A stretch of 36,504 bases of DNA from Minisyncoccota bacterium (GTDB lineage: Bacteria; Patescibacteriota; Minisyncoccia; Phycocordibacterales; CAINVO01). The notes beneath the pieces are model-generated. The model did not search any database. It was not told the origin of the DNA and worked only from the letters and a program-made list of their open reading frames with translations. This document shows positions 7,756-22,969 of this stretch, in pieces. The stretch covers positions 1 to 36,504 of the forward strand of contig JAQTMP010000002.1 in NCBI GenBank assembly GCA_028714275.1. Direction: 5' to 3'. The position numbers and the translations under genes are program-made. Position 1 is the first letter of the stretch, and every line of letters begins with the position of its first letter.

Positions 7756-7836
7756 ATGGCGGAATAATACGACGAAAGTTTGGTTTGACACAAGGGGGAG
7801 AAGCATGTCGTGGCTTTTTATGCTACAATTGGAGCC

Positions 7837-8502
7837 ATGCTAATCATTGCTGGTCTCGGAAATCCAGGAGAAGAATACCTAAATACGCGACACAATGTCG
7901 GCCGGATGGTCGCACAGGCTTTTGCCAAAAGAAATGATTTTCCGGATTTTATTTTTAGTAAAAAATACAATGCCTTGATTTCGGAACGAGTAATGACAGT
8001 CGTGTTTGAAACAAATATGCTCAAAAAAGGCAAACCCACTGGCGCTCATAAACTCTCAAAAAAAACTAAAGAAAAGGTGATGGTAATCCTGCCAGAAACC
8101 TTCATGAATAAAAGCGGCAGCGCCCTCAAGCCTCTAGTGTCAAATGCTAAGAAAGCTGAGCAGCTCATTGTCATCCATGATGATTTAGACTTGGCCTTTG
8201 GATCATCAAAATTGGCTTTCAATCGAGGGTCAGGAGGTCACCGTGGGGTGGAGTCTGTGATCCGCGCCCTCAAGACGGAGGCTTTTACACGTTTAAAGAT
8301 AGGGATTTCTCCCTCGACTCCTAGTGGCAAAATCAAAAAGCCCTCAAATGACAAAATTTTAGATTTTATTATTGGAAAATTTAAACCTGCTGAGCTAGAA
8401 CAGATGAAGAAAATTTCAAAAGAATCTGCGGACTATGTGAAAATAATTCTAGAAGAGGGTAGGTCTCATGCTGCAGGGAGTATAAATAACAAAAAGAAGT
8501 AG
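7837..8502 (+). CDS. pth: peptidyl-tRNA hydrolase
   Basis: MLIIAGLGNPGEEYLNTRHNVG N-terminus, FMNKSG, and HDDLDL. The ATG at 7837 is preceded by TACAAT (7823-7828) and GGAG. The track start at 7810 is a GTG. Confidence 0.9.
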   Translation: MLIIAGLGNPGEEYLNTRHNVGRMVAQAFAKRNDFPDFIFSKKYNALISERVMTVVFETNMLKKGKPTGAHKLSKKTKEKVMVILPETFMNKSGSALKPLVSNAKKAEQLIVIHDDLDLAFGSSKLAFNRGSGGHRGVESVIRALKTEAFTRLKIGISPSTPSGKIKKPSNDKILDFIIGKFKPAELEQMKKISKESADYVKIILEEGRSHAAGSINNKKK

Positions 8503-8563
8503 GACCTTTCTCATTAAAGCGCTCGAAGACTCGCTAACCCGTTCGAAAGGTCCTACTTTTTTT
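8501..8563 (+). terminator. intrinsic terminator after pth
   Basis: AGGACCTTTC (8501-8510) pairs with GAAAGGTCCT (8545-8554) and is followed by ACTTTTTTTAT. Confidence 0.7.
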
Positions 8564-8680: not shown

Positions 8681-9055
8681 TTAGCAGGCGGCCGCCGCGA
8701 TGGCTGTAGTCAGCCGACCGCGACCGGATTCCCGCGCGGCCACTCTCAACCGCAGAAGGTCCTCAGCCTTTTGGAAAAAGGTATGGACCGCTTCGCCGTT
8801 TGAAGGTTGGTCGAAGTGGAACACTTCGAGCTTTGTCGTCCGAAAGGCCTTGCAGGCATCCGGCGGCACAACCTCTGTATCCAAAACCACCATGTTGGGA
8901 TGGTCGGAGTTGAAGTAGAGGCTGGTCGCACACTGATTCTGGACATCCAGGTCAACGATCAGGCTTTTCAGGCCTTGATGATCGCTGATATGTGCTGTGC
9001 TGAGGACTGCGGCATTGAGGACGATGACGGTGAACAACCGATTATGAATTGTCAT
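8681..9055 (-). CDS. hypothetical small secreted protein (124 aa)
   Basis: The N-terminus MTIHNRLFTVIVLNAAVLSTAHI looks like a signal peptide. It lies in a GC-rich patch where several frames are open, so this frame was chosen only for the signal peptide and the downstream terminator. There is no SD. Confidence 0.4.
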   Translation of the reverse strand: MTIHNRLFTVIVLNAAVLSTAHISDHQGLKSLIVDLDVQNQCATSLYFNSDHPNMVVLDTEVVPPDACKAFRTTKLEVFHFDQPSNGEAVHTFFQKAEDLLRLRVAARESGRGRLTTAIAAAAC

Positions 9056-9113
9056 TTTTCTAAAAAGTCTGTAGCAAATAGTAAGGCATTATTGGCTTTG
9101 TGTCAATGGTAAT

Positions 9114-9228
9114 AACAAAATCCTCCACCTACTTGACGGAAACTTGCGCAGGCGCGTCGGCGCCGAGCAGAGCAGAAAAGTCAGCAGACTTTTACGCGTG
9201 TTCCGGAAAGTAGGTGGAGGATTTTGTT
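9114..9228 (+). repeat. structured palindromic element, copy A
   Basis: A 21-bp perfect outer stem (9114-9134 / 9208-9228) encloses GGCGC-GTCG-GCGCC, GAGCAGAGCAG and AAAAGTC-AGCA-GACTTTT. It is homologous to 16485-16641 and 16665-16781. Confidence 0.75.
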
Positions 9229-9233
9229 TACTA

Positions 9234-10340
9234 CTATTTCACAAAGCCTAGTGCCATCTTCTGTTCTTTTGGATCAAAAAGATTGATTTTGAAACTATAG
9301 CTTTTACCGAGTTCGATGGTTTCTCGAAGCTTGGCTTCAGTGCCAAATTCTGATACATGTACAAGTCCAGCCACACCTTCTTCGATACTAGCCAGAGCTC
9401 CGTGTTTGTTGAACTTAATCACTACACCGGTGACGACATCATCTTTTTTATATTTCTTACTTGCAGCCTTCCAAGGGTTTTCTTTGAGGGCTTTGATGGA
9501 AAGGGAAATTTTGCCATCTTTAATTTCGATAATTTTTACTTTTACCTTATCTCCGACTTTAAAGAGGGCGCGAGGATCTTCGACGAGCGCCCAGTCAATC
9601 TCTGAAATATGGACTAGGCCTTCGAGACCTTCCTCAAGTTTTACAAAGACTCCGAAATCTACCATGCCAGTGACATTTCCTTCGACTTCATCGCCGACAG
9701 CATATTTGCCCACGATTTTTTCCTTGTCTTTCTGCTCAGGATTTTTTTCTGAGAAAATAAGCTTGCCTTCTTTTGGAGAAGCGGAAATAATGACTACGGA
9801 AATACGCTTGCCGAGAAGTTTTTTGAGCTCGTCCAGGATTTTATCTTTATCGCCGTCAAGGACTCGAGGGTAGTGGTCGCTCTTGAGCTGAGAAGCAGGC
9901 AAAAATCCCTGGATACCTTGCCATGAGAGGATAAGACCACCCTTGTTGGCCTCGACGACGGGAAGATCGAAAGCGGTTTTCAAACGGATAGCTTCTTCGG
10001 CTTCACTCCAGATGAGGGCTTGTTTAGCTTCTTTTAGAGAGAGCTCAATATAGCCTTCGGGGTGATCATAGCCAACAACCTTGGCGGCGATGCTATCTCC
10101 TATATTTACTTTTTTAATAATATCGCGGGCGTTGATATATTCACGGCCGTAAATAATACCGGTACCGTATGGGTGCAAGTCCACAAACACACCTTTTTTG
10201 TCGATGGCGATGACAGGACCTTCTACAATGTCAGCCACGCTTGGAGGAGTGACAGTGTCGTTGAGCATCTTGCCCATGGGACTGTCCTTTTTACTGTCCT
10301 TTATGTCCTTAATGGTTTCTTTATCTGCTGTTTTAATCAT
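9234..10340 (-). CDS. rpsA: 30S ribosomal protein S1 (four S1/OB repeats)
   Basis: Repeated S1-domain blocks (GDxVxGxV...FGxFVxL...GLxHxSE), for example VEGNVTGMVDFGVFVKLEEGLEGLVHISEI and VTGVVIKFNKHGALASIEEGVAGLVHVSEF. Confidence 0.9.
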   Translation of the reverse strand: MIKTADKETIKDIKDSKKDSPMGKMLNDTVTPPSVADIVEGPVIAIDKKGVFVDLHPYGTGIIYGREYINARDIIKKVNIGDSIAAKVVGYDHPEGYIELSLKEAKQALIWSEAEEAIRLKTAFDLPVVEANKGGLILSWQGIQGFLPASQLKSDHYPRVLDGDKDKILDELKKLLGKRISVVIISASPKEGKLIFSEKNPEQKDKEKIVGKYAVGDEVEGNVTGMVDFGVFVKLEEGLEGLVHISEIDWALVEDPRALFKVGDKVKVKIIEIKDGKISLSIKALKENPWKAASKKYKKDDVVTGVVIKFNKHGALASIEEGVAGLVHVSEFGTEAKLRETIELGKSYSFKINLFDPKEQKMALGFVK

Positions 10341-10346
10341 ATATGG

Positions 10347-10409
10347 TTAGAGCCACAAGGTTCGCATGAAAGTCTGTCATAACACAATGCGAGGTTACTT
10401 GTGGCTAAA
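10347..10409 (-). promoter_or_regulatory. nested hairpin in the rpsA 5' leader
   Basis: AGCCACAAG (10351-10359) pairs with CTTGTGGCT (10398-10406), and inner TCGCAT (10362-10367) pairs with ATGCGA (10387-10392). It ends about 7 nt upstream of the rpsA ATG, and no SD is visible. Confidence 0.3.
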
Positions 10410-10504: not shown

Positions 10505-11845
10505 TCAAATCAGCATCACCTCGGTCTCGCTGCCCACACCGTTTGTTCCATCCTTTCCAATAAACTGAAGCGCCTGCTCTTTGGCGGCCTGTTTGTCCCA
10601 TTCACTGGTCGGGACTTTGATAGGCACCTCCGATAGATTGAAAAGAAGAACATCCGTTTCCGGCGTAGATCTATAGCGGAGCCGAAGCTGGCCTCCGAGA
10701 TAGTATGGAGCCGACGGCACCGCAAACTTGCAACTGTCCGCCACGGGACACATCCGACAGGAGCGGTCGTAAGCTGCAAGCTGAGCTTCGCCCCAGGTCG
10801 GCGCCACGTGGAGGACACGCGACTTCCTTCCAGGACTTTTGGTGGCATTTTCAAACAACGCCAATCCATCTTCCGGTCTGGGTTTGTGCCCCAATTGCTT
10901 CTTCCGATTGGTCCGGAGCTTTTGCTGCTCCTTTCTTTTCTCGGATTTGTCCGGAGTCTGACTTTCGTTGTCCGGATGCCACGAACACATGGCTCTTGAG
11001 AAAAGCCAAAGGGCATCACAGAGCTCGACCATGTCGATCTTGCTTTGCTCGCAGTAGCTTTGAGCGGCTTCTCTCGCAGTGCTGAGCAGCTGGGGAGAAA
11101 ACACATTGTCACCTACCTGCATGTTCCAGTTTGGCTTGATGATCTCGTTTGAGAGCAACATCCTGAGGACATGAAAGTCCACAGGCACCGGAATGGTGTG
11201 TCGATCGACCAGGTTTGTCTCAGCCAAGAAGTAAGTAATCATGCTGACCATCTTGTGCTGAAAACCCAGAAAGCCGTTTGGCGAACTGAGTTTAAACTTG
11301 CCGCTGTTGGCGATGCGATCAACTAGGTCATCAAATGAATTGACCTGATCAAACAAGCGTCGTGGATCAGATTGCCAAAACTTGTGAAGTTTGATGGCAT
11401 TTAAAATCCAAAAACGGGCGTTTTCCTCGTGGCTGAAGCCTAATCCGTGCGCCTGGAGCTCACTTCTGAGCTCCTGATAAACTTTCTCCTTGGTCAACAG
11501 GGCAATCAGCTTTGGGCCGTAGGGAATCTCCCCATTTTTGAGGGCCAGATTCCGTATTTTTTTGACCAGGTAGCCCGGAACAAACAAATACGGCTTCCTT
11601 TCATGGATGAGGGTGAGCTGTTGCACGGCGACCTTGCTATCAATGCCTCCGCGCATGTAGTAGCAGACGGTCCACAAGAAAACGGCATGTTCAGAGCCGC
11701 CAAAAATCAAGTTGTCGGGCATGTTTTGCCTGATCTGGGGCGGAGTGCTGTGATCGAAAGGGTGTTGCTTGACGCGAAGCCTAGCAATCAACCTATCAAA
11801 AACCGCAAAAGCCCGTTTCCAATCGATAACGTAAGAATATTGCAT
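10505..11845 (-). CDS. HhH-GPD / endonuclease III-like [4Fe-4S] DNA glycosylase homolog with a 75-aa insertion in the Fe-S cluster loop
   Basis: By-eye alignment to E. coli Nth: GFQHKMVSMITYFL matches GVGRKTANVVLNTAF (Lys kept), VPVDFHVLRML matches IAVDTHIFRVC (Asp kept), and ALWLFSRAMC matches HHWLILHGRYTC. Downstream comes C-X75-C-X2-C-X5-C (CRMCPVADSC). The preferred start is the ATG at 11845, with AGGAGG 6 nt upstream; the track start at 11902 is a TTG. Confidence 0.6.
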   Translation of the reverse strand: MQYSYVIDWKRAFAVFDRLIARLRVKQHPFDHSTPPQIRQNMPDNLIFGGSEHAVFLWTVCYYMRGGIDSKVAVQQLTLIHERKPYLFVPGYLVKKIRNLALKNGEIPYGPKLIALLTKEKVYQELRSELQAHGLGFSHEENARFWILNAIKLHKFWQSDPRRLFDQVNSFDDLVDRIANSGKFKLSSPNGFLGFQHKMVSMITYFLAETNLVDRHTIPVPVDFHVLRMLLSNEIIKPNWNMQVGDNVFSPQLLSTAREAAQSYCEQSKIDMVELCDALWLFSRAMCSWHPDNESQTPDKSEKRKEQQKLRTNRKKQLGHKPRPEDGLALFENATKSPGRKSRVLHVAPTWGEAQLAAYDRSCRMCPVADSCKFAVPSAPYYLGGQLRLRYRSTPETDVLLFNLSEVPIKVPTSEWDKQAAKEQALQFIGKDGTNGVGSETEVMLI

Positions 11846-12076
11846 CTGACGCCTCCTTTCTGTTGGATGTTGTATGTCATGGTGCTTATTGTTCTGAGGC
11901 AACGATACGCGTTTAAATTTTGTTTGTAAAGAGCCTCTTCCTCTTTGTCAGTTTTTATTTTTTAATATGTTGTCCACAGGCTTTTACACTGTTTTTAAAA
12001 ATTATTTTTGACAAATGAAGGTACAATAAAATCAGAATAAAAAATAGCTCAAAACCCAACTGGAAAGGAGGGTAAA

Positions 12077-12919
12077 GTGAAAAGATTAACAATCAGAAAT
12101 ACGGGCAGATCTTTATCTGGCAGGAATTTTTATGCCGCGGCCAATCAAGTGATTGAAGTGGTCGCCAGCTTCGGTGAAGAGCTGTGTGCCAAGATCACCG
12201 GCGGAGAAGTTGTCTCGACAGACCAGGACTATGCATCCTTTGCGGATGTGTTTGTCGAGGATCATAGCCTCGCAGTCCAAGTCAAGATGTGCAACCATCG
12301 TCATGCGCATCGGCCGACAATCTCCCAGGTCGTCACTCTTCACGAGCAGGTAAAGGAAGTCAGCTTTTTGGTAAACGTTATGCACGGCGTTTACGCCCTC
12401 GTTTTTTATGGGGGAGTTGGTCTAGGGGGTATCAATCGGGGCAAGTCCAAGATTCTGAGTAGGAAGCTTGGGCGTGAAGGTAAAAAAGTTGTAATTGGTC
12501 GGGAGCTTCAGTACATATATTTCATCGACGTCGAGTTGATGAACTACCTTGCCACAGAAAAGGCTTACGAACATCTTCGCAAGTCTGGCAAAGTCAAAGT
12601 GTGTGCGGAACGAAAGCTCTACTCCAAGATTGACAAGACCGTCCTGTACTTGAATCGGACTTTCCTGCAAGGTTTTGTGGGACAGCCAGTCCAACAGACT
12701 TACAGGGATATGCTCGATGCAAGTTTGGGAAGCGGTGACTGGAGGATCAGAAAGGAGAAAATTAATCTCCGGTTCACCACCTCAGTGGGTCTTGTCCGAA
12801 AGGCTCTGCCCATCATCATGGTGGGTTCAAGGGAGGTCGTCAAAAGCCTCCGAAAAATGGTCAGAAAAGCTGACGGCATCAAAATCCCGTTGGCTAATGG
12901 CAACCAGCCACATTTGTAA
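12077..12919 (+). CDS. hypothetical protein, possible PD-(D/E)xK-fold nuclease (D...QxK variant)
   Basis: GTG start with AGGAGG (12066-12071) 5 nt upstream. The N-terminal region contains IEVV (E27) ... FADVFVEDHSLAVQVK (D57-X10-Q68-V-K70) on predicted beta strands. This is a motif-level guess only. Confidence 0.35.
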   Translation: MKRLTIRNTGRSLSGRNFYAAANQVIEVVASFGEELCAKITGGEVVSTDQDYASFADVFVEDHSLAVQVKMCNHRHAHRPTISQVVTLHEQVKEVSFLVNVMHGVYALVFYGGVGLGGINRGKSKILSRKLGREGKKVVIGRELQYIYFIDVELMNYLATEKAYEHLRKSGKVKVCAERKLYSKIDKTVLYLNRTFLQGFVGQPVQQTYRDMLDASLGSGDWRIRKEKINLRFTTSVGLVRKALPIIMVGSREVVKSLRKMVRKADGIKIPLANGNQPHL

Positions 12920-12928
12920 ATCAAAGGT

Positions 12929-12980
12929 CCGAGTAGCTCATGTCACCACACATGCGCTGCTCGGCCTTTTTCTTTTCTCA
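12929..12980 (+). terminator. intrinsic terminator after the nuclease-like gene
   Basis: CCGAGTAGC (12929-12937) pairs with GCTGCTCGG (12956-12964, one G-U) and is followed by CCTTTTTCTTTTCTC. Confidence 0.65.
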
Positions 12981-13029
12981 TCCTTTTTCTCTTTTCTTGG
13001 CCAGAAGTCTATGCTACAATATCCCCACT

Positions 13030-13698
13030 ATGGTCATCACTTATCAAGGTTTAGAGTGCTTCAAGCTCCAATTTGGAGACCTCACGGTGGTGACCAATCC
13101 ACCGGCTAGAGACTCCGTTTTTAAAACCTCCAAGTTCGGGGCTGATGTGGTTCTGCAAACGGTCCTCGACGAAGATATGGCTGGAGGCGAGGACTATTCC
13201 TATGGAGACAAAAAGCCCTTTATTATCAATGGACCTGGTGAATATGAAACTCGGGGCGTTTTTATTCGAGGTTTTCCTTCAGTGTCAAAATACCATTCTG
13301 CTAACGATAAAACAGATAGTGACGAAGGTGAATCAATCAACACTATATATACTTTCCAAATAGACGGAATCAATCTCTGTTTTCTGGGCGCCCTCGGGTC
13401 CACTGATCTGAAGCCAGAGACAGTGGAGGGCATCGATACGGTGGATATTCTTTTTGTGCCAATAGGCGGAGAGGGGGTGCTGACAGCCGCAGAAGCTTAC
13501 AAACTAGGCGTCAAGCTTGAAGCTAAACTCATTATTCCTATGCATTACGAAGGGACCAATGGAAAAATAAAAGAAGAGGCGCTTAAAACTTTTTTGAAGG
13601 AAGCAGGGGAATCAGCCGCTCCGACGGACAAACTCACTATCAAGAAAAAAGATTTGGAAGGTAAAGAAGGTGACGTGGTAGTGCTTTCAAAGGTATAA
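13030..13698 (+). CDS. MBL-fold metal-dependent hydrolase (UPF0173-like)
   Basis: MVITYQGLECFKLQF...VVTNPP, DILFVPIGGEGVLTAAEA and IIPMHY are typical of this small beta-lactamase-fold family. The track N-terminus (12940-13029) runs through the preceding terminator, so the ATG at 13030 is preferred. Confidence 0.7.
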   Translation: MVITYQGLECFKLQFGDLTVVTNPPARDSVFKTSKFGADVVLQTVLDEDMAGGEDYSYGDKKPFIINGPGEYETRGVFIRGFPSVSKYHSANDKTDSDEGESINTIYTFQIDGINLCFLGALGSTDLKPETVEGIDTVDILFVPIGGEGVLTAAEAYKLGVKLEAKLIIPMHYEGTNGKIKEEALKTFLKEAGESAAPTDKLTIKKKDLEGKEGDVVVLSKV

Positions 13699-13977: not shown

Positions 13978-16473
13978 ATGCCAAAAAATTCCGCGGAAAA
14001 TCCGAAACATCAGAATGAAAATAATTTGCGTGTCCAAGGTATTGGCAGCGAGCAGATTTCTCCTCGCAACCTGACTATCGAAATGAAAGAGTCGTATATA
14101 GACTACGCTATGTCAGTGATCACGGAGCGTGCCTTGCCTGATGTACGTGACGGACTCAAGCCGGTACATAGACGTATTTTGTATGCCATGCATGAGCGCG
14201 GCCTGACTTCTTCAGCCAAGTTTCGTAAATCAGCCTTCGTAGTCGGTGAAGTGATGGGAAATTATCACCCTCATGGAGACGCGTCTATTTATGATGCACT
14301 TGTAAACATGGCGCAGGATTTTTCCTTGCGCTATCCGCTCGTCTTTGGTCAAGGAAACTTTGGAAACATTGACGGAGACTCAGCGGCGGCTATGCGTTAT
14401 ACCGAAGCTCGCATGGCTCGGATCACTTCAGAGCTTTTGCGAGATATTGAAAAACAGACAGTCGACTATCGTCCCAATTATGACGGTTCACGCAAAGAGC
14501 CGACTGTCTTGCCGACGGCGGTGCCCAATCTCTTGCTCAACGGTGTCCTCGGTATCGCCGTCGGCATGGCCACCAACATTCCTCCGCACAATCTCGGTGA
14601 GCTTGTGGATGCGACCGCTCATCTACTCGCCAATAAAGACGCTACTACTGACGACTTGCTCCAGTTTGTCAAAGGTCCGGATTTTCCTACAGGCGGTGTG
14701 ATCTATGGAGAAAAAGACATTGCGCATGCCTATATCCACGGTCGTGGCGGCGTGGTGGTGCGCGGAGAAGCTGAAATTGTTGAAGACAAAGTAGGCCATT
14801 CAAAAATTATCATCACGTCAATCCCATACCGTGTCAACAAATCTTCCTTGATGGAATCCATCGCTGAGCTTGTGCGCGAGAAAAAACTCGAAGGCATCAA
14901 AGACCTGAGAGATGAATCCACCAAGGACATTCGCATTGCTATCGAGCTCAAGAGTGGCAGCTATCCTCAAAATGTCCTCAACTTTTTATACAAGCACACT
15001 CAGCTTGAAACCACTTTCCATTTCAATATGGTGGCCCTGGTGGACGGAGTTCCTCAGACCCTTTCTCTCAAGAGCTGTCTCGAAGAGTTCATCGGCCACC
15101 GAAAAGTAGTCATTCGTCGTCGCACGGAATTTGATCTCGCTAAGGCTAAAGCCCGCGAACATATTTTACTTGGTTTGAAAAAAGCGCTTGATCATATCGA
15201 CGCCATCATCAAGCTGATCAAAGCTTCAAAAGATACTCCGACCGCTCACCTCAACTTGATGAAGGAATTTAAGTTTTCTGATTTACAGGCGGCGGCGATC
15301 CTCGATATGAAGCTCCAGCGTCTCGCCGGCCTTGAGCGCAAAAAAATCGAGGAAGAGCTCAAAGCCATGCAGCTTTTGATTTCGGACCTCGAAGATATTT
15401 TGAAAAATACCAAGCGTATCCCAGCTATTATCAAAGACGAGCTCGCCGAAGTCCGCGCTAAATACGCTGATGTTCGCAAGACTCGGGTGGTCAAGCATCA
15501 TGCCAAGAATTTTTCGGTAGAGGATTTGATCCCTGATGAGGAAAGCGTGCTAGTCCTCACTTCTGGCGGCTACATCAAACGGACTGATCCAGATGAATAT
15601 CGCAAACAAAAGCGCGGAGGAGTGGGTGTCGTAGATCTTGATACCAAAGAAGAAGACTTTATCACTCACTTTTTGACGGCGTCAGCCCACAGTGATTTGC
15701 TTTTCTTTACTGATAAAGGCAAAGCCTATCAGATCAAGATGTATGATATTCCGGAAGGCAAGCGAGCCACTCGAGGCAAGTCCATTATGAATTTCCTCGC
15801 TCTTTCAGCTGAAGAAAAAATTACTTCCATCCTGCCCATGCCAAAAGAGATTAAAAAGGGTAGCGAGCTATCGCTCTTCTTGGTGACCAAAAATGGCACA
15901 GGCAAAAAAGTGGCCGCCGAAAGTTTTCACGATGTTCGTCGCAGCGGCATCATTGCCATCCGTCTCGATGCCGGCGATGACCTAGTCTCAGCTTCATTTG
16001 TGGAAAAAGGCGACGACATGATCGTGGTCAGTTCTGATGCACAGTCGATTCGTTTCAAGGAGTCAGACGTGCGTGAAATGGGACGAGGGGCCGGAGGTGT
16101 GCGCGTGATGAAAATTGATAAAGGTGAACATGTGGTGGGAGCTAATGTCATTAAAAAAACTACCGCGGGTGACGCCAGTATTTTGACCGTTTCTGGCAAT
16201 GGCTATGGCAAGAAAACTCCTCTCAAAGAATACAAAACCCAAAACCGTGGCGGCTCGGGCATCAAAACTTCCAAAGTGACTCCAAAGACTGGCGCTCTTA
16301 TTGCAGCTATCATCGTCACTCCCGAGCTCGAAGAAGCCGTGGCTATTTCTAAAAAATCCCAGGTCATCCGTTGCGGTCTCGGTGAAATCGCGACCCTAGG
16401 ACGCGATACTCAAGGTGTGCGTATTATGAAGCTCCGAGAAGGAGACGGTATAGCATCATTAATTTGTCTATAG
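13978..16473 (+). CDS. gyrA: DNA gyrase subunit A
   Basis: [29 protein letters not shown], active-site Tyr in [10 protein letters not shown], and C-terminal beta-pinwheel repeats. Confidence 0.95.
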
Positions 16474-16484
16474 ACATTCATATC

Positions 16485-16641
16485 AATTCTCTTTCGACAC
16501 ATACACTAAAGCCACACGCATATTTTTCTGCTGAAAAATTGCTCTGCTCGCGCCGTCGTACCACAAGGGCACTTCTTGTTTGATAAATCAAACAATGTCG
16601 CGCTGCGCAAGGTGTTTTAGTGTATGTATCTACAGAGAATT
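16485..16641 (-). repeat. structured palindromic element, copy B (reverse orientation, with an insertion)
   Basis: Outer stem ACATACACTAAA (16499-16510) pairs with TTTAGTGTATGT (16616-16627) and extends imperfectly to 16485/16641. The reverse complement of the interior shares CTTGCGCAG, CGGCGC-GAGCAGAGCA, TCAGCAGA and GCGTGT with copy A. Confidence 0.75.
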
Positions 16642-16664
16642 AAGCTAATTATTTAATATAGTAA

Positions 16665-16781
16665 TTTTCCGTAGACTCATACACCTAAAAGAGACTCACG
16701 GAGGACGACGGTCCGAGTGTGAGGAAAAAAGTCAGTAGACTTTTTATCCGTGCTCTTTTAGGTGTATGAGTCGAAGGAAAA
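16665..16781 (+). repeat. structured palindromic element, copy C
   Basis: A 20-bp perfect stem, GACTCATACACCTAAAAGAG (16674-16693) with CTCTTTTAGGTGTATGAGTC (16753-16772), plus TTTTCC/GGAAAA. The interior is CACGGA-GGAC-GACG-GTCC-GAGTGTGAGG-AAAAAGTC-AGTA-GACTTTTT-A-TCCGTG. Confidence 0.75.
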
Positions 16782-16793
16782 TTGGTATATAAT

Positions 16794-17342
16794 ATGCTCA
16801 TGTTCGCTAATCCCAAAAAACACATCGCCAAAGCTTATATAGGTGAAGGCATGATTGTGGTGGATTTTGGTGCGGCCGCGGGCTACCATGTTTTTGAAGC
16901 AGCGAAAAAAGTAGGCGAGTATGGAAAAATTTATGCACTTGATGTCCAGACTGATCTTTTGCGGCGGATAAAAAATGAAGCCGACAGACAGGGCCTAAAA
17001 AATATTGAGATCATTCATGCCAATGTTGAAAGAGAAAACGGCAGCGGTCTGATGGAGCATTCTGTCGATCGAGTTTTTATAATCAATCGTCTCTTTCAGG
17101 CGGATGACAACGCCTCTCGGGTCAGAATGTTTAATGAGGCACTTCGTATCCTAAAACCCACGGGCAAACTAGTCGTCGTCGACTGGCTCGCATCTTTTGG
17201 TCACCTTGGGCCGCATCCCGATCAGGTGATTAGCCGGGATGAAGCTGCCACGCTGGGACGTCAAAATAGTTTTGTTTTAGAAAAAGAATTTCCAGCAGGG
17301 GATCACCACTACGGTCTACTATTCACACCCATCAAGAAATAG
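16794..17342 (+). CDS. class I SAM-dependent methyltransferase
   Basis: Motif I VVDFGAAAGYH, an acidic post-I residue (YALD), and motif IV-like LKPTGKLVVVDW. The ATG at 16794 is preferred over the TTG at 16782, which abuts element C. Confidence 0.75.
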   Translation: MLMFANPKKHIAKAYIGEGMIVVDFGAAAGYHVFEAAKKVGEYGKIYALDVQTDLLRRIKNEADRQGLKNIEIIHANVERENGSGLMEHSVDRVFIINRLFQADDNASRVRMFNEALRILKPTGKLVVVDWLASFGHLGPHPDQVISRDEAATLGRQNSFVLEKEFPAGDHHYGLLFTPIKK

Positions 17343-22878: not shown

Positions 22879-22921
22879 ATATGTAATATAAGGCATAAAA
22901 AATATGCTTTATATTACATAT
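22879..22921. promoter_or_regulatory. 18-bp inverted repeat in a divergent promoter region
   Basis: ATATGTAATATAAGGCAT (22879-22896) and ATGCTTTATATTACATAT (22904-22921) match at 17 of 18 positions, with the loop AAAAAAT. Confidence 0.3.
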
Positions 22922-22969
22922 CGAGCATATAGACAACGTATTTTTTATTTTTTATGCTAAGCTACGCCT

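Follow-up and report, generated by a model that had tools for sequence, protein, structure and literature searches.

Hairpin-tip palindromic repeats at gene ends in an order of Paceibacteria

The palindrome abutting the 3' end of rpsA in the DNA analyzed here (the window, i.e., the whole stretch of 36,504 nucleotides of contig JAQTMP010000002.1) belongs to an interspersed non-coding DNA repeat of one Paceibacteria order (Patescibacteria/CPR). This repeat, called family-1 below, is represented by 36–37 copies, including copies A, B and C of the window, in a 742-kb, 97%-complete genome. Its architecture is unusual: a conserved apex is combined with private stems partly derived from the flanking DNA. 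With a probability of about 0.6, family-1 is a selfish DNA-level hairpin-tip repeat that settles in hairpins at gene ends and lengthens them; thereafter, these hairpins probably serve as terminators in both directions.

The host belongs to the Paceibacteria (Parcubacteria group) and was recovered from a landfill metagenome, the nearest named MAGs being those of Taylorbacteria, Zambryskibacteria and Paceibacterota. The copies were found by motif searches, iterated nhmmer and a covariance model (R1), the last proposed in the initial annotation as a route to further copies. A gap in E-values from 2e-6 to 0.6 separates the members from noise, and the best E-values go down to 1e-27. The genome devotes ~0.6% of its DNA to family-1, and more to two sister families. 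Within the same order, R1 detected family-1 in 24 of 41 genomes, with 0–45 copies in each (e.g., 11 in the congener G001, 34 in G020 and 45 in G035); in the rest of the phylum, copies were found in 3 of 150 sampled genomes, fewer candidates being scored per genome there. The summed depths of the core amount to ~300–500 in three landfill metagenome runs, and the core pattern is also present in contigs from groundwater, soil, peat and sediment. As for carriage by phages, the core pattern had 0 matches in 2.9 million viral contigs. Since the Logan contigs from the landfill runs (X1–X3) stop inside the palindromes, mobility was deduced from between-species comparisons at ~80% identity; an exact-protein look-up returned no near-identical strains on record. 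Full-text literature searches found no publication linking Patescibacteria to such repeats, and family-1 is apparently a repeat of Paceibacteria (CPR) not previously described.

Structure and covariation of the core

Every copy follows the same order of parts: a private arm, CTT(GA/TT)nGGAG, a junction, the hairpin P2, a linker, the hairpin P3, a junction, CTCCn(GA/AA)AAG and the second private arm. On one strand, the core folds into a Y: P1 leads into a three-way junction from which two hairpins emerge, P2, rich in GC and closed by a GACG-type loop, and P3, rich in AU and closed by the loop AGCA. Without exception, the core caps a long inverted repeat with a locus-specific sequence. The ends of the core are covarying terminal inverted repeats of 10–12 bp. 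At least four subfamilies of the core can be distinguished, with identities of up to 97%, and near-identical cores of one subfamily are carried on unrelated arms.

The core of copy A (~77 nt, positions 9132–9210, plus strand; nhmmer E 2e-15) conforms to the consensus fold and its covariation. It starts with the terminal inverted repeat CTTGA.GG...CC.GAAAG containing a tandem G-A internal loop, continues with P1 and the closing helix UGCGC/GCGUG, and encloses P2 (GGCGC-GUCG-GCGCC), the purine linker GAGCAGAGCAG and P3 (AAAAGUC-AGCA-GACUUUU). The architecture read for 9114–9228 in the initial annotation, namely, a 21-bp stem, a closing helix, two hairpins and a linker, is thus borne out in the sequence: the predicted RNA fold of copy A has an energy of -66.9 kcal/mol vs. 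-30.7 +/- 3.3 in dinucleotide shuffles (z = -11.0), the reverse strand folding nearly as well. R1 aligns with copy A at 9128–9214 (81.8 bits, E 1e-20), and the core of this copy is 97% identical to that of copy C21:7070 from the same genome.

The proposal that pairing itself is under selection, made initially from three copies, is now supported for the core by the alignments of the whole family. In 33 genomic copies aligned with MAFFT, 89.6% of the cells are paired, as compared with 65.1 +/- 0.9% in shuffles and 39–53% with the partners slid; double-change cells number 245 vs. 68 expected, and 27 of the 31 pairs display compensatory changes. The corresponding figures for 41 copies from metagenome contigs, in an alignment fitted to the model, are 96% of paired cells and 23 covarying pairs out of 24. 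Covariation is strong in P1, P2 and P3. At the junction, the closing helix (alignment columns 20–22/73–75) and an extension of P2 (19–21/41–43) both covary, the two being mutually exclusive. Both the base of the core and P2 contain tandem G-A internal loops, which are symmetric and give way to U-A pairs in some copies.

Mismatches in the core helices are biased: G·U exceeds A·C by 13 to 4 in the MAFFT alignment and by 12 to 6 in the metagenome set (25 vs. 10 in total), and the candidate closing helix at the junction contains ~31 G·U cells and 0 A·C, although these cells are not independent. Hence, there is a hint that one particular strand, either of RNA or of single-stranded DNA, folds. The mismatches in the arms (28 G·T vs. 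20 A·C) are free of strand bias.

These features bring up a functional structured RNA as an alternative explanation. The core would then be a strand-specific module (e.g., an element of the 3' UTR bound by a protein, a site of processing or a small RNA) presented by the stem, both being maintained by selection acting on the RNA. Strong covariation, the conservation of loop and junction nucleotides across subfamilies and metagenomes, the tandem G-A internal loops as a typical RNA motif, the excess of G·U over A·C and the many G·U pairs of the junction helix all speak for it. At the same time, the family is absent from 17 of the 41 genomes of the order as well as from orthologous sites of the congener, copy numbers vary from 0 to 45, and there is no match in Rfam, which, together with the data on orientation and on sister tip families presented below, makes this explanation unlikely. 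At the gathering thresholds of Rfam, two tRNAs and nothing else pass in the window; permissive scans of both loci returned weak chance matches to snoRNA and miRNA families (13–25 bits vs. gathering scores of 70–101), so the initial statement that no known RNA family matches the element stands. The consensus sequences of hammerhead, twister and hairpin ribozymes and of the K-turn were compared by eye without a match, the G-A loops being symmetric.

Copies in the window and position at gene ends

The three highest-ranking inverted repeats of the window (I1 to I3) are copies A, B and C, though not in this order. The recurrence of the element at 16485–16641, in the opposite orientation, and at 16665–16781 was claimed at the outset and agrees with both the folds (z = -5.9 for copy B and -10.5 for copy C) and the family membership; the blocks reported as shared by copies A and B, i.e., CTTGCGCAG, GGCGCGAGCAGAGCA, TCAGCAGA and GCGTGT, were likewise found. 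As to the outer stems, initially described as perfect, this holds for copy A (9114–9228, plus strand), where arms of 21 bp (9114–9134 and 9208–9228) surround the core, but in copy B (16485–16641, minus strand) the 26-nt arms 16485–16510 and 16616–16641 are 88% complementary. The full palindrome of copy C occupies 16651–16795 (plus strand) and has perfect arms at 16674–16693 and 16753–16772; with the imperfect extension, its arms attain 43 nt each at 86% (I1). The arms of copy A also align beyond the limits set earlier, over ~45 nt including their imperfect outer parts.

The rpsA ORF (9234–10340, minus strand), encoding three S1 domains, terminates with the codons ..ALGFVK and a stop at 9234–9236, 5 nt from the end of copy A, as noted before; the core is antisense to rpsA. 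According to the arm alignment, the native 3' end of rpsA (9229–9257, minus strand) constitutes the outer part of the right arm of copy A, and the decayed outer part of its left arm (9085–9113, plus strand) is an inverted copy of the final rpsA codons. Between 9085–9113 and the reverse complement of 9229–9257, there are 22 matches, a score reached by 0 of 2000 shuffles, and the inverted codons include GGCTTTGTG, corresponding to Gly-Phe-Val. The C-terminus of rpsA is conserved in the congener. Furthermore, a sigma-70-like promoter-like site (TTGACA-17-TACTAT, 9106–9078, minus strand) located upstream of the 124-aa ORF 8681–9055 has its -35 box on the minus strand inside the decayed left arm, so the palindrome overlaps both the end of one gene and the promoter of the next.

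A family-1 core is present at the 3' end of rpsA in this genome, in G020 and in 6 of 80 other Paceibacteria loci, and it is antisense in all eight genomes possessing one, although their arms and core subfamilies differ. Such constancy is not predicted for a random inserter and counts in favor of a structured RNA. It could also reflect an old insertion whose tip has been renewed by conversion from other copies with its orientation preserved; alternatively, a site-specific constraint could be responsible. The rpsA locus of the congener harbors a hairpin with a tip of a different family. On the opposite side of the gene, the rpsA leader (window ~10345–10405) contains a conserved hairpin, AGCCACAAG...CTTGTGGCT, common to the congener, through which ribosomal protein S1 may be regulated.

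Copies B and C lie between gyrA (13978–16473) and a methyltransferase gene. In accordance with the initial reading, copy B begins 11–12 nt past the gyrA stop (16473); its core is antisense to gyrA and is recognized by the covariance model at 16515–16569 on the minus strand (36.7 bits), the core of copy C being recognized at 16680–16766 (80.7 bits). Copy B owes its greater length to a 39-nt two-hairpin insert (16558–16596, minus strand) in the P2 loop, flanked by GTC/GTC direct repeats; considered as a repeat in its own right, this insert is unique in the genome. The outer arms of copy C reach the TATATAAT (TATAAT) promoter region of the methyltransferase gene, the alignment of the outermost arm exceeding chance weakly (equaled by 34 of 2000 shuffles). 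The distance from the gyrA stop to the methyltransferase ATG is 12 nt in the congener vs. 308 nt here, where copy B, a 23-nt spacer and copy C form a block (16474–16781) that is an insertion relative to the congener; copies B and C are therefore dispensable additions. The two are mirror-image units with arms ~80% identical (0 of 2000 shuffles), this match being better in the same-sense than in the opposite assignment, and with cores of different subfamilies; the core of copy C is 90% identical to that of C1:21388. Since the cores of B and C are only 52% identical at ~80% identity of the arms, duplication of a whole unit is insufficient to explain the pair.

Genome-wide, the coding strands were assigned by conservation against the congener. 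All 36 copies examined are intergenic and none is inserted in frame within a protein-coding gene; the distance from the stop codon to the perfect arm is -21 to +10 nt in 22 of 32 cases. Copies are also located after the RNase P RNA gene and, judged by eye, on the flanks of a putative tmRNA (ssrA) beside smpB, and two reside in divergent promoter regions (C1:21388 and C7:14491). The same orientation relative to the upstream gene, noted initially for copies A and B, holds for this pair, both being antisense, but not for the family, where ~13 cores are sense and 13–15 antisense. The reported absence of a U-tract is confirmed for copies B and C, in which the T counts at the arm ends reveal no terminal T-rich run, but copy A has a T-rich run at its end in both reading directions (TTTTGTTTAC and TTTTGTTATT), and a simple terminator scan flags its minus-strand side. 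For the family as a whole, the arm ends contain 4.9–5.3 T out of 12 against a background of 3.3, with at least 8 T in 7–10% of the copies.

A strand-specific RNA role would be hard to maintain genome-wide in view of the ~50:50 orientation relative to the transcribed strand, the unbiased mismatches of the arms and the scarcity of T-rich ends. A role as a symmetric hairpin is compatible with the orientation and arm data. The same body of evidence bears on another explanation, according to which these are ordinary intrinsic terminators with loops alike by convergence or, as the fallback of the initial annotation had it, three coincidental hairpins. Positions past stop codons, A/T-rich outer arms on some copies and the terminator-like call on copy A are what it would predict. 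Nevertheless, 36 copies share a 77-nt core, with E-values and subfamily identities as given above, many of them have no T run, and some sit in divergent promoter regions; this explanation is refuted by the family statistics and can be dismissed as highly improbable.

Arms, tips and the comparison with the congener

The flanks of every copy were compared with the sequence of the congener (~802 kb, 45 contigs, without 12 kb at the end of contig C43). The element at C32:635 is absent from the orthologous site. In the element at C1:46165, the left arm doubles as the coding sequence for the native C-terminal end of the gene upstream (EKIKEKLK-stop vs. EKIREKII-stop in the congener), and the right arm, a perfect inverted copy of the left one, is absent from the congener. 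The hairpin after the RNase P RNA has orthologous arms in the two genomes (CAAAATAGCTAGAAGTA here vs. CAAAATAGCCGGAAGTA in the congener) with a compensatory CTAG/CCGG change at the center of the palindrome, whereas its tip is the family-1 core here and an unrelated 42-nt sequence there. The orthologous C35 locus of the congener features two classical short terminators, and its C5 locus carries a hairpin with a different tip family.

Hence, two processes are distinguished: the tips move or are replaced independently of the arms, and the arms grow by inverted copying of neighboring sequences. The differences between the outer stems, read initially as a sign of selection on pairing, are not accounted for by compensatory changes in a single ancestral stem: the arms are private to their loci and partly represent inverted neighbor DNA, and the cores are exchanged independently of them. 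Insertion into the loops of pre-existing terminators is insufficient on its own: the arms outgrow tip-less hairpins, and some of them copy coding DNA absent in the congener. Among the perfect inverted repeats of 12 bp or more, a census counted 30 family-1 hairpins, whose arms had a median of 21 bp (12–40), and 49 short-loop hairpins, with a median of 13 bp in a distribution cut off at 12. Therefore, long stems go with large tips; either the mode of tip arrival makes these stems or selection keeps a hairpin with a 77-nt "loop" foldable.

The census also revealed at least two further families in which a conserved tip is placed on private arms. One of them is represented in the window at 8497–8558 by the 34-nt tip TCATTAAAGCGCTCGAAGACTCGCTAACCCGTTC with 14-bp arms over the stop codon of pth (peptidyl-tRNA hydrolase, 7810–8502); at least seven copies are present in the genome, and their arms are unrelated. 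The other has a 53-nt tip (TCGTACCCACTC..GGGAAACGTC) on private arms of 19–26 bp and at least five copies in the genome (C14:4061, C30:331, C31:6831, C40:6043 and C55:2516); tips related to it cap the hairpins of the congener after rpsA and at the C5 locus. That tips of several unrelated families are found at equivalent sites, one substituting for another, is a further argument against a functional structured RNA. The palindrome ATATGTAATATAA-N17-TTATATTACATAT at 22879–22921 of the window (also 22893–22957), with at least eight copies, is an element of a different kind, REP-like or operator-like, conserved over its whole length including the arms.

Under the preferred selfish-repeat reading, the cores would spread to, and be exchanged between, gene-end hairpins independently of the arms, and the arms would subsequently be lengthened by inverted copying of the adjoining DNA. 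The likely route of this copying is fold-back or template-switch synthesis at an extruded hairpin, a chemistry that corrects quasi-palindromes. The resulting structure would be a large orientation-independent hairpin just past the stop codons, most likely serving as a bidirectional terminator or a 3'-end protector.

Elements of this kind are also encountered at junctions of insertions and deletions between the two congeners. Apart from the block of copies B and C, two hairpins on contig C9 (14198–15257) lie on either side of an 862-nt stretch that holds two small genes (of 136 and 106 aa); the congener is devoid of this segment and has 22 nt between its two hairpins, the first of which shares orthologous arms with its counterpart here but has a tip of a different family. 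Likewise, a GC-rich two-gene island (window 10505–12919) is absent from the congener, where rpsA and the ortholog of 12940–13698 are separated at this junction by a family-1 hairpin element.

Mobilization, known systems and implications

A RAYT or IS200/IS605-type TnpA was suggested initially as a mobilizer; none was found in the genome and none tracks the element in its relatives. The Y1 transposase domain (PF01797) has 0 matches in this genome (G000) with its 36 copies as well as in G001, G020 (34 copies) and G029, and matches are present in the copy-free genomes G011, G021 and G036, so a RAYT/IS200 mobilizer is rejected on the ground that Y1 does not track copy number. Five rve-type DDE transposase/integrase genes are present here (C26:5112, C12:16535, C58:1769, C33:7364 and C16:13685), and rve is absent from G020, G035 (45 copies), G028, G003 and G001; an IS3-type mobilizer is rejected as well, rve being unrelated to copy number across relatives. 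There are no transposase-like genes between paired copies, and the core borders display inverted repeats of 9–54 nt in their flanks and no direct repeat resembling a target-site duplication.

A DNA recognition site with a cellular role is another conceivable explanation: a host protein would bind the folded strand or cruciform in the course of attC-like recombination, replication/segregation or DNA uptake. Its support comes from the location of the elements at the indel junctions listed above, from the strand-asymmetric core mismatches, which would fit a folded single-stranded DNA substrate, and from an orientation independent of transcription. Family-1 does resemble integron attC sites, which are structured, strand-specific DNA hairpins past the stop codons of cassettes and are recognized by structure more than by sequence. 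However, attC sites depend on IntI and possess conserved outer boxes (R''/R'), a variable center and a fixed orientation relative to the cassette gene, whereas family-1 shows the inverse architecture, a conserved center with private stems, at an orientation of ~50:50. Moreover, the enzymes screened (Y1 and rve) yielded no candidate recombinase, the patchy presence argues against an essential chromosomal signal, and on the large contig of G035, inspection by eye revealed no correspondence between the strands of the listed copies and the halves of the chromosome. On balance, recognition of this sort is rather improbable. Still, the G·U excess in the core and the constant orientation at rpsA keep both this explanation and the structured RNA alive.

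Among the three options put forward in the initial annotation, i.e., a structured RNA, a REP/MITE-like hairpin element and a protein-recognized DNA cruciform, the second fits best. Family-1 behaves like a selfish palindrome of the REP/MITE type parked at terminator positions, though it lacks defining features of REP/RAYT elements and of classical MITEs. The REP/REPIN/BIME elements of Proteobacteria are RAYT-associated palindromes tagged with GTAG or CGTC (PMC3733652). As in family-1, these are high-copy extragenic palindromes just past genes, functional in the form of a hairpin, and their proposed roles are termination and protection of mRNA 3' ends. In contrast to family-1, where conservation is confined to the 77-nt apex and the arms are unrelated between copies, REPs measure 20–40 nt and are conserved over the whole palindrome; they are mobilized by RAYT, whereas the genome studied is without RAYT/Y1 and none co-varies with copy number.

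Bacterial MITEs (Correia/NEMIS, ERIC, RUP and BOX) are likewise small structured repeats, interspersed and non-coding, that have expanded in particular lineages and influence the transcription of their neighbors; their terminal inverted repeats find a counterpart in the conserved ends of the family-1 core. Unlike family-1, flanked by long inverted repeats of local DNA with no target-site duplication and independent of Y1 and rve in copy number, they have fixed ends, direct target-site duplications and related autonomous IS. The palindromic elements of Rickettsia (RPE) offer a parallel as selfish palindromic repeats with conserved secondary structure in the reduced genomes of host-dependent bacteria, but they are often inserted in frame into genes and show conservation from end to end, as opposed to the intergenic copies of family-1 with private stems.

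Fold-back priming, or correction of quasi-palindromes by template switching, is described by Ripley's model, and palindromes initiated by short inverted repeats occur in Tetrahymena and yeast. In such palindromes, a short inverted repeat seeds pairing within the strand and the arms grow by inverted copying of the flank, which is how the arms at C1:46165 and in copies A and C appear; however, these palindromes are sporadic rearrangements, whereas family-1 is inherited in many copies, and its tip, a three-way junction, is conserved and covarying. The position of family-1 copies past stop codons is shared with intrinsic terminators.

A broader proposal, which we put forward tentatively and consider less probable than its negation, is that family-1 exemplifies a transposase-free "hairpin-tip" class, in which unrelated tip families, at least three in this genome, would compete in CPR bacteria for the apices of gene-end hairpins, spread between extruded hairpins by structure-directed template switching or conversion, and build long palindromes from the genes and promoters next to them. 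If such a class exists, streamlined genomes would harbor elements that propagate themselves and thereby supply terminators, rewrite gene ends and set cassette boundaries.

In practical terms, these elements break assemblies and create spurious ORF extensions, and strains of Paceibacteria could be typed by means of them. With its conserved loops, the conserved and covarying three-way junction is a candidate ligand for a protein. The genomes of CPR/Patescibacteria are extremely compact, yet ~0.6% of the DNA here is made up by one repeat family. If the selfish-repeat reading is true, non-coding DNA spreads in these genomes without encoding or obviously borrowing a transposase, and terminators, gene 3' ends and promoters would be overwritten by inverted copies of each other.
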